Shown here: piece by piece, positions 2 to 63,725 of the stretch
Layout of the letters: every line of letters begins with the position of its first letter
Position numbering within the stretch: position 1 is the stretch's first letter
Assembly (NCBI RefSeq): GCF_049075655.1
Contig: NZ_CP157522.1
Span: 544,001 to 608,000 of the forward strand
Direction of reading: 5' to 3'
Length of the DNA: 64,000 nucleotides
From: Methanothermococcus sp. Ax23
Lineage (GTDB): Archaea > AGJL01 > Methanococci > Methanococcales > Methanococcaceae
Made by a program: the position numbers and the translations under genes
The notes under the pieces: model-generated
What the model was told of the DNA's origin: nothing
Database searches by the model: none
What the model saw: only the letters and a program-made list of their open reading frames with translations

Positions 2-1708
2 TATGCCGTAAAATCTGAGGATACCTATGATGCAGAAGAGGATAACCCAATAACATTAAAAATTGTGGATAGCGTAAAGGCCGGGGAATTTTCAGATGTT
101 GAAATTAAAAATGGAGAGTGCATAGAAATAGCCACCGGAGCTCCTATTCCAAAAGGGGCAAATGCTGTTGTTATGGTGGAATATACTGAAAAAGAAAATG
201 GTATGGTAAAAATATATAAACCTGTTTCGCCCCACGAAAATATTCAATACTGTGGTAGCGATATAATGGCAGGGGAGCTCATCTTAAGAAAAAATACTAT
301 TCTTTCACCAAGGGATATAGGGGCATTATCTGCAATCGGAAGGGATAAAATAAAAGTTAAAAAGAAAATTAATATAGGATTAATATCAACAGGAAACGAA
401 CTAATAAACCCTGATGAATCTCCAAAACCTTACAAAATTTATGATGTAAATACATACACCCTTGCATCTTCAATATTGGAAAAAGGGTGGAATTTTAAAT
501 TCTATGGAATTGTTAAGGATAATAAAAAAGACTTAATGGAATCCATAAAAAATGCAATTGATGACGACAACGATATTGTAATATTAAGCGGTGGAACATC
601 AGCAGGAGTTGGAGATTTAACTGCAAATGTAATAGAAGAACTTGGGGGACGTGTTCTTATCCATGGGATAAAGATAAAACCGGGAAAACCAACAATCATA
701 GGAACCATAAAACATAAATCAACTTCTGGAAATAAAGAAAAACTAATTGTAGGTCTTCCAGGGTATCCAACATCATGCCTAACAATTTTTGATGTGCTCT
801 TTAATGAAAAGGGAAAAACTATAACTGGCCATTTCCCAATTAGATATATGTCCGCAAAGGGAAGGACAGAATACTTACCTGTATCAATTATTAAAGGAAA
901 TGAGGGATATGTGGTTTATCCAATTACAAAGGGGAGTGGTGCTATCACGTCCTTAACCTATGCGGATGGATATGTTGTTATAGATGAAAATAAAGAAATA
1001 CTGGAAGATGAAAATGTAGAGGTTCATTTATTTGGAAATATATTATTTGGGTTAAATATAATAGGTAGTCATTGTGTGGGCATAGATGAGATACTTAGAA
1101 AAGGAAACATTTTTGCAAAAACAATAAATGTTGGCTCTCTTGGTGGATTGATGGCCATTAAAAGAGGGGAAGCAGATATTGCAGGTATTCACTTACTTGC
1201 AGATAATGGGGAGTATAATATACCTTTTATCAAAAAGTATAGGGTTAAAAACGCCGTTCTTGTAAGGGGATATATTAGAAGGCAAGGTTTTATGTTTAAA
1301 AAGGAGCTCGGTATAAATACAATAGATGACATTGTGAAAAATATTAAAAAATACAAATTCATAAACAGGAACAAAGGAGCAGGGACGAGGATTCTATTTG
1401 ATAAATTTTTAAAGGAAAATAAGATTAATAAAAACGATATAAATGGCTACGAAATTGAGGCAAAAACTCACTCTGCTGTTGGTGCATCTGTTGCCATGGG
1501 GAAAGTGGATATTGGTGTGGGAATTGAAACAATAGCTGAAAAATATGAGCTCGGGTTTATACCCATTGGTGATGAATATTATGATTTTCTCATTAAGTCA
1601 GATAAATTAGAAGATGAGGATGTAATGAAGTTTATTGAAACCCTTAAAAAAGTCGAATTGCCATTTAAAAAACCTGAAAATTGTGGAGAGATTATATTTA
1701 AGTGCTAA
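2..1708 (+). CDS. moeA: Molybdopterin molybdenumtransferase MoeA fused to a periplasmic-binding (PBP) domain; 5'-partial
   Basis: Frame is open from base 2 (YAVKSED...). MoeA motifs [32 protein letters not shown]-terminal PBP domain ([16 protein letters not shown]). Confidence 0.9.
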
Positions 1709-1832
1709 TATTGCATACCTGCCCAATATTTGTAATATATCAATGAAATAATGAAGATAAATGGAAATATTTATATGCTGGAAAATATAAAACAAAATTT
1801 AAGATTATATATAACAATGTTGGTGGTATGTT

Positions 1833-2438
1833 GTGGAAGAAACCGGCAAAAATACTGAACTAATAGAAAGATTAGCAAAAGAATTACATAACATTTGGAT
1901 TGAAAAATTAAAACACATCTTGGCAGGGGATGAACCACTTGATGATGAAATAGTTAAAAAATTGGAAAATCACATAACAACATGGGATGACCTTGATGAA
2001 GAATCAAAAGAAAAAAATAGATTGGAAGCTTCAAATTTATTAAAAATAGTAGGGGATAATGAATATAAAAAAATATTTGTATATGGGACATTAAGACGAG
2101 GATGCGGCAATTATTACGCATTTTTGGATAGGTCAGACGTTAAGTTTTGCGGCGTGGAAAAAAAACATGGATATGCATTATATAGTAATAATATAGTGGC
2201 ATACATGGTTAAAACCGGCAACAAAGAAGATTACGTCGTTGGTGAAGTGTATCTAGTTCCCGATAAAATCTACAAAAAAATTAGCCAGATGAACACAGGT
2301 GCAAATTACAAAGAAGTCTATGAAGATGGAGAAATTTTTTGGACCTATGAAAAACCACTTCCAAACGCTGTAAAAATTGAAAGTGGAGATTACCTCAAAT
2401 ACAATAAGCAGTTTCTGGAATACAATATATTAAGTTAA
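1833..2438 (+). CDS. RyR-like domain fused to a gamma-glutamylcyclotransferase (AIG2/GGACT-like) domain
   Basis: N-terminal LAKELHNIW...WDDLDEESKEKNR resembles a RyR repeat; C-terminal IFVYGTLRRG and VVGEVY are the GGCT-like signature; GGTGG RBS upstream. Confidence 0.7.
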   Translation: MEETGKNTELIERLAKELHNIWIEKLKHILAGDEPLDDEIVKKLENHITTWDDLDEESKEKNRLEASNLLKIVGDNEYKKIFVYGTLRRGCGNYYAFLDRSDVKFCGVEKKHGYALYSNNIVAYMVKTGNKEDYVVGEVYLVPDKIYKKISQMNTGANYKEVYEDGEIFWTYEKPLPNAVKIESGDYLKYNKQFLEYNILS

Positions 2439-2439
2439 A

Positions 2440-61410: not shown

Positions 61411-61604
61411 TTTTTTATATTCCTTATTTTTAATATTATTTATTTATAATAATATGATATCTTCGTATATTTAGGTATTAACATATTACTAAATTATTTA
61501 ATATCTGTAATAACGATTTAAAATAGCAATTCTTAAATATAATATCATTAAAAATAATAGTAGTGGTATAATCAATAATAATCAAATGAAAAATCGGTGG
61601 TAAA

Positions 61605-62438
61605 ATGGTTGTAAAAATAGGCATTATTAAATGTGGAAATATTGGGATGTCTCCGGTAATTGATTTAGCATTGGATGAGAGGGCGGATAGAAAAGATATC
61701 GATGTTAGAGTTATTGGAAGTGGGGCAAAGATGGGTCCTGAACAGGTGGAGGAAGTAACTACAAAAATGGTTGAGGAAATAAAACCCGATTTTATAATAT
61801 ATATCGGACCAAACCCAGCAGCACCAGGCCCAAAAAAAGCAAGAGAAATTTTAAGTACATGTGATATTCCATCAGTTATCATTGGTGATGCACCTGGTTT
61901 AAAAGCAAAAGATGAGATTGCCGAACAAGGACTTGGATATATCATTATAAAATGCGACCCAATGATTGGTGCAAGAAGGCAATTTTTAGACCCTGTTGAA
62001 ATGGCTATGTTCAATGCAGATGTTTTAAGAGTGTTGGCTGGAACAGGTGCATTAAGGGTTGTTCAAAATGCAATTGACGCCATGATTGATGCAGTTAAAG
62101 AAGGAAAAGAAATTGAATTACCAAAAATAGTCATAAATGAAACAAAAGCAGTAGAGGCTATGGAATTTACAAATCCAAACGCAAAAGCAAAAGCGATGGC
62201 AGCATTTGTCATGGCTGAAAAGGTTGGAGATGTGGATGTTAAAGGATGCTTCATGACAAAAGAGATGGAAAAATACATCCCAATTGTAGCCTCTGCTCAT
62301 GAAATGATAAGATATGCGGCTAAATTAGTAGATGAAGCAAGAGAATTAGAAAAAGCTATGGATGCTGTGAGCAGAAAACCGCATGCAGCAGATGGAAAAA
62401 TATTAAGTAAAACAAAATTAATGGAAAAACCAGAATAA
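61605..62438 (+). CDS. mtd: F420-dependent methylene-H4MPT dehydrogenase
   Basis: KCGNIG, LDERADR, GSGAKM, PMIGARR and VASAHE. Confidence 0.96.
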   Translation: MVVKIGIIKCGNIGMSPVIDLALDERADRKDIDVRVIGSGAKMGPEQVEEVTTKMVEEIKPDFIIYIGPNPAAPGPKKAREILSTCDIPSVIIGDAPGLKAKDEIAEQGLGYIIIKCDPMIGARRQFLDPVEMAMFNADVLRVLAGTGALRVVQNAIDAMIDAVKEGKEIELPKIVINETKAVEAMEFTNPNAKAKAMAAFVMAEKVGDVDVKGCFMTKEMEKYIPIVASAHEMIRYAAKLVDEARELEKAMDAVSRKPHAADGKILSKTKLMEKPE

Positions 62439-62504
62439 AGTAAATTTTATTATTTAATTATATTTTATTTTTATTTATTGTTGTTTTTGTATTTTATTAT
62501 TTTT

Positions 62505-63725
62505 TTAATCGGATTTTTTTAAAATATTCATAAATTCGTCAATGGCTTCCTTTACTGTGTTTTTATCTGTTTTAATTACATTGATATAATTGTTTCCAAG
62601 GGCATTATAGGTTCCTGTGCCAATATCTTTAACAATAACTGCATTAATACCATTGTCCATTAAAAATTCCGTAATTTTTATGCCTCTTTTCTTATCCAAA
62701 TCTTTTGCAGGGTTTTCTTTTACTTCAATATCTTTTATATTATATTCATAAGAATCAACACTTGCAATTACAAAATATTTTGCAAGAGAAAATTTATCTG
62801 CTATCGCCGAGCTCATCACATCATTATCATTTATTACATTAATTGGAACTGCCACTTTGATATATCTTTTTTTGATGGGGTCAATATGGACAGTTATATC
62901 GGATATGTTTTTTATATTTTCTTTTATTTTATCTACAACATCTTCTGAAATCTTATGGGCAGATTTAAAGGATAAATTTTCATCCACTTCAATGTGCATA
63001 TCGCAGAATATAAATGGTCCAGATTTTCTAGCTTTTAAATGGTGAGCTCCTTCAACCCCATTTACACTTAATGTTATATTCTTTATTTGCTCAACTGTTT
63101 CTTCATCGCAAAAATCCATCAGCATATAAATATCCTTTTTAATCATTTTCAATCCCAAACCAATTACAATTAGGCTTATTATTCCCCCGACAATTGGTTC
63201 CAGAATGTAGTATCCAAAATAAGAGCCCACTACTGCAAACAATACTGCAATTGTGGTGTAGAAATCCACCAATGAGTGAGCTCCCTCCCCAACCATTGCA
63301 TCAGAACCTATTTCCTTTCCAACCTTTGCCTTATATTTATAAAGATAGTATGTAACTGCAAGGGAAACCAATACTGCAAAAATTACTGCAAAATGGTGGT
63401 GTATTGGTGTAGGATTGCCAAATTTTTCAATAGATTGTCGTAGTGTTTCAATACCAGTTATAAAAATGATAAATGATACTGCAAAGGATGCAAGGGTTTC
63501 TGCTCTGCTGTATCCGTATGGAAATTTAGCATTTGGCTCTTTTTGAGCAAGTTTTAATCCAAAATACACTGCAATAGGTCCCAATACATCAGATAATGAG
63601 TGTAGAGCATCAGCTACAAGAGCCACACTTCCGGAAATATATCCAATAATGCCCTTCAATACTGCAATAAATAATGTCAATATGGCACTAATTACCATGA
63701 CCTTTTTTCCTTTTTCAATATTCAT
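62505..63725 (-). CDS. Cation diffusion facilitator fused to a NifB/NifX-like domain
   Basis: ADALHSLSD, FPYG and VHIDP; C-terminal KVAVP...ENP...IG.G domain. Confidence 0.88.
   Translation of the reverse strand: MNIEKGKKVMVISAILTLFIAVLKGIIGYISGSVALVADALHSLSDVLGPIAVYFGLKLAQKEPNAKFPYGYSRAETLASFAVSFIIFITGIETLRQSIEKFGNPTPIHHHFAVIFAVLVSLAVTYYLYKYKAKVGKEIGSDAMVGEGAHSLVDFYTTIAVLFAVVGSYFGYYILEPIVGGIISLIVIGLGLKMIKKDIYMLMDFCDEETVEQIKNITLSVNGVEGAHHLKARKSGPFIFCDMHIEVDENLSFKSAHKISEDVVDKIKENIKNISDITVHIDPIKKRYIKVAVPINVINDNDVMSSAIADKFSLAKYFVIASVDSYEYNIKDIEVKENPAKDLDKKRGIKITEFLMDNGINAVIVKDIGTGTYNALGNNYINVIKTDKNTVKEAIDEFMNILKKSD

Follow-up and report, generated by a model that had tools for sequence, protein, structure and literature searches.

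The question raised by this locus is what force could fill a stretch of archaeal chromosome with copies of one six-letter palindrome. The window analysed here is 64,000 nucleotides of the chromosome of the vent methanogen Methanothermococcus sp. Ax23 (contig NZ_CP157522.1; C1:544001-608000), and the unstranded span 138..63283 within it holds 91 copies of GAGCTC (1.42 per kb), 86 of them in called open reading frames (ORFs) and five outside. An initial annotation made from the letters alone had estimated about 90 copies against 4-5 expected, and counting bears this out, with all ten positions that it gave as examples among the sites counted; dinucleotide-preserving shuffles of the window yield 4.27 +/- 1.96 copies (largest 10), and none of 100 reaches 91. 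The same excess pervades the whole genome (hereafter G000; a chromosome of 1.663 Mb and a plasmid of 7.7 kb, GC 31.9%), where 2,089 copies stand against 124.7 expected from composition. This 16.8-fold excess ranks first among all 4,096 hexamers, and the hexamers ranked just below it are its own sub-words. The observed/expected ratio (O/E) for Markov orders 0 to 4 is 16.8, 19.7, 13.1, 4.9 and 1.6, the drop at high orders arising because the signal sits in the pentamers of GAGCTC itself.

Genome-wide, the word occurs at 1.25 sites per kb with Poisson, exponentially distributed spacing (Kolmogorov-Smirnov p = 0.41; variance/mean 0.9-1.2) and no periodicity between 5 and 100 kb, the strongest peak being matched by 132 of 500 shuffles. 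Positions flanking the hexamer carry at most 0.21 bits each, with G at -1 in 38% of sites. Neighbouring words that differ from it at one position are mildly depleted (O/E 0.4-0.9) and conserved below average (0.39 vs 0.45); a signature of very short patch (VSP)-type repair, for which a single strongly depleted neighbour is expected, was rejected because none was seen among these neighbours. In addition, 41% of all AGCT tetramers in G000 fall within GAGCTC, and AGCT hexamers flanked by A/T lie under expectation (0.32-0.57). The resident 7.7 kb plasmid carries 4 sites, against 0.35 expected.

Where GAGCTC falls makes plain that it is a signal at the level of DNA, present throughout the genome. 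Rough longest-ORF gene calls (1,560 ORFs, 85.8% of the chromosome) assign 1,940 copies to coding DNA, where 118 are expected (16-fold), and 145 to DNA outside the gene calls, where 8.4 are expected (17-fold). The coding copies are distributed over frames 0, 1 and 2 as 1,098, 620 and 223, with all three frames enriched; the 86 window sites in called ORFs divide as 47, 23 and 16. The claim that sites occur in several reading frames and between genes was thus confirmed in the window, where five sites lie outside the called ORFs, and the enrichment is about 17-fold in coding and non-coding DNA alike. When synonymous codons are shuffled within genes, keeping protein and codon usage, 190.6 +/- 14.5 copies are obtained (maximum 222 in 40 runs) versus 1,941 in the genome, and a codon permutation null gives 113 +/- 9. 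Glu-Leu pairs are spelled GAG-CTC in 1,098 of 3,933 cases, against 66.7 expected. A shuffle that preserves codon pairs retains the frame-0 sites by construction, and the test is borne instead by frames 1 and 2 and the spacers. Two outcomes had been named in advance as counting against a HIP-like signal, namely loss of the excess under a codon-pair-preserving shuffle and equal enrichment in recently acquired DNA. Neither was found: the excess survived the synonymous shuffle, and sites are sparse in mobile DNA and in acquired DNA of low GC.

More specifically, the window contains an IS200/IS605-type gene for a TnpB-family RNA-guided endonuclease (41970..43160, minus strand; NCBIfam NF040570, 193 bits) and an IS5-family transposase gene, one copy of a multi-copy element (45801..46715, plus strand; NCBIfam NF033579), and both are free of GAGCTC, just as the annotation had asserted. 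Across G000, 79 kb of multi-copy DNA holds 14 sites, or 0.18 per kb versus 1.31 per kb elsewhere (Poisson P ~1e-26). The largest GAGCTC-free stretches are two glycosyltransferase/polysaccharide clusters of 26-27.5% GC, clusters of ORFans without a Pfam match, and insertion sequence (IS)/TnpB DNA; the archaellum and chemotaxis clusters are likewise poor in sites. The process has yet to reach mobile or recently acquired DNA. By NCBIfam, the genes of the window are core methanogen genes, including aminoacyl-tRNA ligases, Mmp3, marker 16 and Mtd. The phenylalanine-tRNA ligase beta subunit gene (49987..51729, minus strand; 4 sites) is a core gene and an example of GAGCTC written into conserved housekeeping sequence; the glycine-tRNA ligase (GlyRS) gene, a core gene and phylogenetic marker (14395..16122, plus strand), carries 3 sites, and a gene of the isopropylmalate/citramalate synthase family (35651..36814, minus strand) carries 4.

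Comparison with relatives reveals that the signal is being made at present. Over 344,941 aligned columns G000 and the related genome G012 are 84.2% identical, and 354 of 466 GAGCTC sites are retained versus 45% for all hexamers, which places the word first among 1,398 hexamer classes. Retention is high in every context (192 of 248 in frame 0, 118 of 150 in frame 1, 30 of 47 in frame 2 and 14 of 21 in non-coding DNA; background 0.43-0.45). Of the sites not shared with G012, 45% differ at three or more of the six positions, compared with a baseline of 9.2% (rank 1 of 1,203), and 63 of 103 lineage-specific coding sites (61%) are non-synonymous, turning, for instance, K-L, D-L, E-I or E-F into E-L. 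Gains fall at all six positions of the hexamer. Sequence next to gained sites has not diverged more than sequence next to controls (0.134 vs 0.168 in the comparison with G003, 0.165 vs 0.176 with G012), and therefore the gains do not come on imported diverged tracts, a route that is ruled out. The process consists of point changes confined to the hexamer, made in any frame and in spacers, and often at the cost of an amino-acid change.

The direction of change was polarised by parsimony in a three-way alignment of G000, G003 and G012 (113,878 positions). G003 is a 90%-complete assembly in 80 contigs, of which 753 kb were used, and the distances (G000-G003 0.096, G000-G012 0.138, G003-G012 0.143) confirm a tree in which G000 and G003 are sisters and G012 lies outside. 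On the G000 branch there are 25 gains and 5 losses, and on the G003 branch 9 gains and 39 losses, 26 of the 39 being single mismatches and mostly transitions. GAGCTC was lost in G000 at 3.4%, versus 21.5% expected for an average hexamer, in G003 at 26% versus 23.8%, and on the branch of G012 plus the stem at no more than 11% versus 42%. Over 612 kb G000 and G003 have 574 sites in common, with 334 found only in G000 and 69 only in G003. A directional process therefore adds and protects GAGCTC in G000 today, and it has stopped in the sister genome G003, where the sites decay at the neutral rate. Dividing one-off transition neighbours by sites, as an index of decay, gave no clean separation of genomes.

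The distribution of the trait across the order is equally uneven. Among the 40 genomes in which GAGCTC was counted, five are enriched (G000 2,089; G012 2,070; G010 1,645; G013 1,515; G003 1,321), five are depleted (G007 4; G008 9; G005 14; G002 16; G015 26) and the remainder hold 43 to 229 copies each. A GlyRS tree was built from 30 of the 38 genomes with a match (there was none in G006 and G031; G001, G018, G024, G026, G030, G032, G038 and G039 were left out). It joins G000 with G003 and then G012, puts G010 apart on a deep branch of its own within the genus, assigns G013 to another genus, and interleaves depleted lineages with enriched ones. In G010 the preferred word is the octamer GGAGCTCC, which accounts for 317 of 415 GAGCTC sites in 400 kb (571 times expectation) and is often lengthened to GGGAGCTCCC. 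The tetramer AGCT is nearly missing from the loci sampled in the depleted genomes, with 9 copies versus 66 expected in 20.8 kb of G005 and 2 versus 50 in 17.3 kb of G002, G007, G008 and G015. A phylum-wide scan gave the same Methanococcales genomes and nothing further. In titles and abstracts on Methanococc*, GAGCTC was found only as a cloning site, and no relevant literature pairing highly iterated palindromes with archaea was found (supplements were outside the search); a population-genomics paper on Methanothermococcus (PMC8417812) has no mention of GAGCTC, deazaguanine or transglycosylase in the text searched, which again excluded supplements.

The closest known phenomenon is that of the highly iterated palindromes (HIPs) of cyanobacteria, the parallel that the annotation had drawn. 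In one account, a HIP is a palindrome enriched at least about 15-fold, present about once per kb in all frames and intergenic DNA, and accompanied, wherever it is abundant, by an orphan methyltransferase for the word or its core (Elhai 2015, PMC4390886); HIP positions are conserved between genomes, and their spacing is periodic at 10-90 kb (Xu et al. 2018, PMC5861425). GAGCTC resembles HIP1 (GCGATCGC) and the alternate cyanobacterial HIPs in being a palindrome at about one per kb, enriched at least 15-fold, in all frames and between genes, with positions conserved beyond background, a variant word in a relative (that of G010) and lineages that have lost it. It differs in being a hexamer in an AT-rich archaeal genome, in the lack of periodicity and of a C5 methyltransferase, in that no tested methyltransferase tracks the trait, and in its candidate mark, a 7-deazaguanine base swap in place of methylation.

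The likeness to HIP1 thus stands for the phenomenon itself (DNA-level, in all frames, at conserved positions, with a variant word and poor in mobile DNA), while the tie to a cognate methyltransferase, suggested for AGCT or GAGCTC, is not supported. The DNA methyltransferases of G000 are a beta-class N4/N6 enzyme (L012), a Type III Mod (L013), a gamma-class enzyme, two Type IIG enzymes and a Type I HsdM (L028). The C5-cytosine methyltransferase family PF00145 has no match in G000 and PF02086 one weak match. Of the five enzymes compared across the order, L028 lying outside the comparison, none is common to the enriched genomes and none follows GAGCTC levels. L012 is absent from the enriched genomes G012, G010 and G013; its orthologues occur in G003 and, at 74-77% identity, in six or seven genomes of family f2 that are not enriched. 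Each of L025, L026, L027 and L013 has close orthologues in no more than two of the other four enriched genomes. Among those four, L025 is found only in G003 and L026 has only a partial match, in G013. The Type IIG enzyme L027 has nothing in G010 or G003, its matches being in G013 (78%), in the N-terminal half of a G012 plasmid gene (74%) and in G005 (48%), and the Type III Mod is absent from G012 and G010. All five were accordingly rejected as writers of GAGCTC. The SacI endonuclease family (RE_SacI, PF09566) matched none of the 40 genomes, a search that was silent in control genomes too.

Two of these loci are of interest in their own right. L012 (C1:1437541-1438443; PF01555, 186 bits) is a stand-alone gene with an SPPY motif, adjoined by a convergent unannotated ORF of 245 aa (loci L001/L012), and the two look like a Type II restriction-modification pair; its occurrence at 74-77% identity in genomes of another family suggests horizontal transfer. 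The Type III locus (C1:1199347-1204361; L013/L229) encodes an EcoP15I-like Mod of 700 aa and a partner of 959 aa, is missing inside a G003 contig and was not found in G012 or G010.

A candidate of a different kind lies among the 43 segments of G000 that are missing inside contiguous contigs of G003. The segment C1:1537329-1542521, outside the window, carries 18 GAGCTC sites in 5.2 kb and encodes four proteins: a 150-aa DUF6884/PDC-M57A protein (48 bits; weak matches to DpdC, the converter of preQ0-DNA to ADG-DNA, and to YaaA at 26.6 and 29 bits), a UvrD-type helicase with AddA/PcrA/RecB-like matches, a predicted PD-(D/E)XK nuclease of the Cas4/AddB/RecB Fe-S type (motifs Cys...CxxCx5C, DYK and QxxxY, invariant in six of six aligned homologues), and the 7-deazaguanine transglycosylase DpdA (NCBIfam equivalog NF041059, 426.6 bits against a cut-off of 200; PADLOC, 411 bits). 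This DpdA aligns over its full length with the Salmonella DpdA structure PDB 7UI4 (E = 1e-80), and its zinc site CxCxxC...H is invariant among four DpdAs and also matches in that alignment. QueC, which the supply of preQ0 requires, is present in G000 (TIGR00364, 224.7 bits against a cut-off of 150.3). No model for DpdB, the ATPase partner of DpdA, matched any of the four cassette proteins, to which that search was limited, and the restriction genes dpdD-K are not in the cassette, which has one UvrD-type helicase and one Cas4/AddB-type nuclease instead.

DpdA was found in four of the 40 genomes of the order, namely G000, G013 (81% identity), G010 (70%) and G028 (60%), and three of the four carriers are among the five enriched genomes (hypergeometric P ~0.004, with kinship ignored). 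In G000, G010 and G013 the module sits between the same flanking genes, which suggests that it is probably ancestral to both genera. It has been cleanly deleted inside a contig of G003, and the corresponding locus of G012 is an empty site; the two empty sites differ in their right-hand boundary, which suggests that the deletions were independent. Outside the order, 11 of 24 loci with DpdA relatives in other phyla have DUF6884, helicase and DpdA together, and 19 of 24 have at least one partner. No paper with Methanococc* as a host of DpdA was found, supplements being outside the search.

A cassette without DpdB, in the order DUF6884, superfamily 1 (SF1) helicase, PD-(D/E)XK nuclease and DpdA, recurs with the same order and spacing in Dehalococcoidia, Thermoplasmatales, Methanoperedens, Methanoregula, Methanotrichaceae, Anaerolineales and others (L240-L263, L268-L326), and no description of such a compact cassette was found in the literature searched. 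Oscillatoria sp. PCC 10802 (L261, NZ_KB235948.1), one of Elhai's exceptional strains with an abundant alternate HIP, encodes a DpdA relative (44%), 5 kb upstream of which lies a DUF6884 gene, and the known alternate HIP of that strain, GCCGGC, occurs 31 times versus 7.8 expected in 21 kb; this may be chance, or it may be another pointer to a connection of DpdA with HIPs. In G028, the segment C1:300001-400000 (L235-L239) contains the octamers CCATACCG and CGATTCGG/CCGATTCG 25-28 times in 100 kb (36-40 times expectation), probably as a repeat array or dispersed element.

The reading that is tentatively preferred here, with somewhat less than even confidence, is that GAGCTC is the recognition site of this resident compact Dpd-type module and that the enrichment depends on the module; the link is a lead and not a result. 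DpdA fits the distribution of the trait better than the methyltransferases do, but not perfectly. The module has been lost in the decaying G003 and is present at one syntenic locus in three independent enriched lineages. The characterised Dpd system of Salmonella Montevideo (dpdA-K) shares with the G000 cassette a DpdA orthologue with the zinc site, helicase and nuclease partners and perhaps, in the small DUF6884 protein, a relative of DpdC; its enzyme targets an N-AGCT-N palindrome and marks about 1 in 1,000 nucleotides (PMC10164549). It differs from the cassette of G000 in that the latter has no DpdB, and a UvrD-type helicase and a Cas4/AddB-type nuclease replace DpdD-K. In that study, CAGCTG emerged as the site of Salmonella DpdA/B, in which the central G.C pairs are indispensable and the outer positions, 1 and 6, contribute, and bacterial Dpd systems in general are said to mark about 1 in 1,000 nucleotides (PMC10164549). 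GAGCTC has the same AGCT core as CAGCTG, at the 1.25 sites per kb noted above.

How the module might multiply its own sites can be sketched as follows. DpdA would swap the central G of the N-AGCT-N palindrome for a 7-deazaguanine base made from preQ0, and the marked site might, more speculatively, act like Chi in stopping or taming an AddAB-like helicase-nuclease, a role favoured because the partner enzymes resemble an AddAB-type resection machine. Chi, as read by RecBCD and AddAB, is a short, host-specific word, enriched in core DNA and scarce in foreign DNA, that switches a helicase-nuclease of the UvrD/RecB family from degradation to repair; it is asymmetric, unmodified, orientation-biased and only few-fold enriched. 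GAGCTC is similarly short, over-represented in core DNA and scarce in foreign DNA, but it is palindromic, possibly modified and enriched 17-fold, and its recognition by the helicase-nuclease is purely hypothetical, what is shown being the parts list, a UvrD-type helicase and a RecB-family Fe-S nuclease. Chromosome copies that bear the site would be spared resection, and copies that lack it would be resected and repaired from those that have it. Methanococcales are polyploid, and in such a cell the outcome would be gene conversion biased towards GAGCTC, to which selection for self-protection may add; once the module was lost the sites would become neutral and decay. Conversion of this Chi-like kind would account for the Poisson spacing, for the insensitivity to reading frame, for gains that alter proteins and for neutral decay once the cassette is gone.

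In its full form the proposal is that GAGCTC, and GGAGCTCC in G010, would carry 7-deazaguanine on each strand as a palindromic, modification-dependent, Chi-like stop that spreads as a selfish and self-protective mark, and this is regarded as unlikely. As part of the same proposal, in polyploid archaea without MutS and NucS, site-bearing copies would convert site-less ones during break repair and the sites would decay after the cassette was deleted. HIP1 has recently been likened to Chi as well (10.1101/2024.09.10.611283, PMC13756078). Selection for self-protection, a tag for uptake or recombination, or another factor may instead provide the mechanism of enrichment.

Several observations weigh against dependence on the module. 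G012 has neither DpdA nor the module nuclease, and only an empty site, yet it holds 2,070 well-kept copies; for its sites to have been kept in this way, the loss of the module would have to fall no earlier than about the final tenth of the G012 branch. In reciprocal fashion, G028 has all four genes (47-59% identity) but 130 sites in 1.76 Mb, and no hyper-abundant palindrome appeared in 100 kb of it. None of the 24 loci of DpdA relatives in genomes from other phyla is enriched in GAGCTC. Of 59 metagenome loci with DpdA, 8 shorter than 3 kb were dropped, and six of the remaining 51 are enriched, all with DpdA at least 67% identical and from the same three lineages; none of the 45 loci below 67% identity is enriched, and one with a 79% DpdA match, extending over only 84 residues, has no site in 4.7 kb. 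AGCT is the most-avoided tetramer in one of 42 carrier loci, and thus there is no general carrier signature. The module was chosen from 43 segments of G000 missing in G003, which introduces a look-elsewhere effect. Finally, the Poisson spacing fits neutral drive, and not selection for even coverage.

The same observations lend weight to the strongest rival, which is itself somewhat unlikely: that another sequence-specific factor, perhaps a homodimeric DNA-binding protein, a nuclease of DNA repair or a DNA-modifying enzyme that escaped recognition, writes and protects GAGCTC, the distribution of Dpd being coincidental or the module having adopted an abundant host word as its self-mark. The persistence of sites in G012 without the module speaks for such a factor, as do G028 and all distant carriers, where the module or a relative of DpdA is present and GAGCTC is not enriched; so does the finding of the module by a screen of 43 segments, and the gene content of the relatives was compared only in part. 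On the other hand, no alternative candidate emerged, and L012, L025, L026, L027 and L013 all fit the distribution worse than DpdA. Such a factor would also leave to chance the three independent lineages, the single syntenic locus, the AGCT-core target and the decay where the module was deleted.

More doubtful still is that GAGCTC lets the cell recognise its own kind of DNA, as a tag, perhaps in need of modification, that would accumulate by molecular drive because conspecific DNA bearing it is preferentially taken up or recombined, which is also how HIP1 is currently read. Such a tag would suit a density of about one per kb with Poisson spacing, presence in core DNA, scarcity in foreign DNA and the sites of the resident plasmid. 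The uptake signal sequences (USS) of Pasteurellaceae and DNA uptake sequences (DUS) of Neisseriaceae are non-palindromic words of 9-12 nt read by a known uptake receptor. GAGCTC is like them in its density of about one per kb, in accumulating by drive and not by per-site function, and in lying in coding DNA at some cost to proteins. It differs in that there is no 9-12 nt word, the information outside the hexamer being as low as given above, and a hexamer makes for poor uptake specificity. We know of no uptake receptor for GAGCTC, and divergence beside gained sites does not exceed that beside controls. HIP1 boosts transformation only if methylated (10.1101/2024.09.10.611283, PMC13756078), which is a point in favour of a tag that needs a mark.

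Escape from restriction merits little confidence. According to this explanation an AluI-type pressure acts on AGCT in the genus, and only the AGCT inside GAGCTC is protected, so that it is tolerated and accumulates. The avoidance of AGCT in the depleted relatives, the large fraction of G000 AGCT found inside GAGCTC and the under-representation of its A/T-flanked hexamers all agree with such a pressure. Tolerance, however, explains why a word is not avoided and not a 17-fold excess built from multi-substitution, protein-changing gains, and there is no match to a SacI-family endonuclease, though that search was uninformative in the controls as noted.

An Elhai-type ratchet, in which a methyltransferase marks the word and methyl-directed mismatch repair keeps new mutations that make it, is highly improbable here. 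It would accommodate gains at all six positions, one-off neighbours that are mildly depleted and less conserved, and a density near one per kb, which matches the prediction of the model (PMC4390886). Nonetheless, G000 has no C5 methyltransferase, and no tested methyltransferase is common to the enriched genomes; none of the 23 family members has MutS and a single one has NucS, and the nuclease of the module is of the Cas4/AddB type and not a MutH-type nickase. All enriched genomes are without MutS and NucS, while G028, a DpdA carrier that is not enriched, has NucS. With no tested methyltransferase that fits and canonical mismatch repair absent, the leading model for HIP1 is all but excluded here. 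As a separate observation, the lack of MutS from all 23 genomes of family f1, with NucS/EndoMS only in G017, makes the correction of replication errors there puzzling; in the sister family MutS is found in 7 of 17 genomes and NucS in 8 of 17. Least credible of all, and already refuted by the frame, shuffle and gain/loss results, is the suggestion that the excess arises as a side effect of protein or codon-pair preference, or is what remains, frozen, of an earlier process, since frame 0 (Glu-Leu) is indeed the most frequent (1,098 of 1,941) but non-coding DNA is equally enriched, all three frames are enriched, the synonymous shuffle strips 90% of sites, and G000 has gained 25 sites and lost 5 since its split from G003.

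To our knowledge, highly iterated palindromes have gone without an accepted mechanism for three decades. Unlike the cyanobacterial system, the present case offers a small genome with close relatives that are gaining, decaying and depleted, which makes the force measurable, as the 25/5 and 9/39 gains and losses illustrate, and a change of word from hexamer to octamer within one genus. What is new here is that no tested methyltransferase tracks the trait, that sites are actively gained in G000 and decay in G003, and that a DpdA module lies at a syntenic locus. The four genes provide a concrete candidate, the only characterised relative of which also puts its mark on an AGCT core, and equally often. 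Genomes avoid ordinary restriction targets and do not enrich them, and no Dpd host that over-represents its own target is reported in the literature searched. If the link is true, this would be the first host to enrich and not avoid the target of a modification-restriction module, 7-deazaguanine in cellular DNA would gain a role beyond defence, and highly iterated palindromes would become testable; if the Chi-like proposal is also true, HIP1 of cyanobacteria could likewise owe its abundance to polyploidy combined with a resection machine and a modified palindrome. Should the link fail, the natural on/off pair of G000 and G003 still narrows the search for the driver.

Two further features of the genome deserve mention. 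G000 very strongly avoids GATC, GTAC, CTAG, ACGT, CGCG and the gapped palindromes GTNNAC and CTNNAG (hexamer O/E 0.02-0.15), despite encoding only a handful of methyltransferases, and this avoidance may reflect a long history of restriction pressure or another cause. A segment of G000 that G003 lacks (C1:1516644-1519264; L223) has a row of four ORFs (158, 262, 166 and 278 aa), each with a match to PF00148 (nitrogenase component 1), which look like two genes each split in two.

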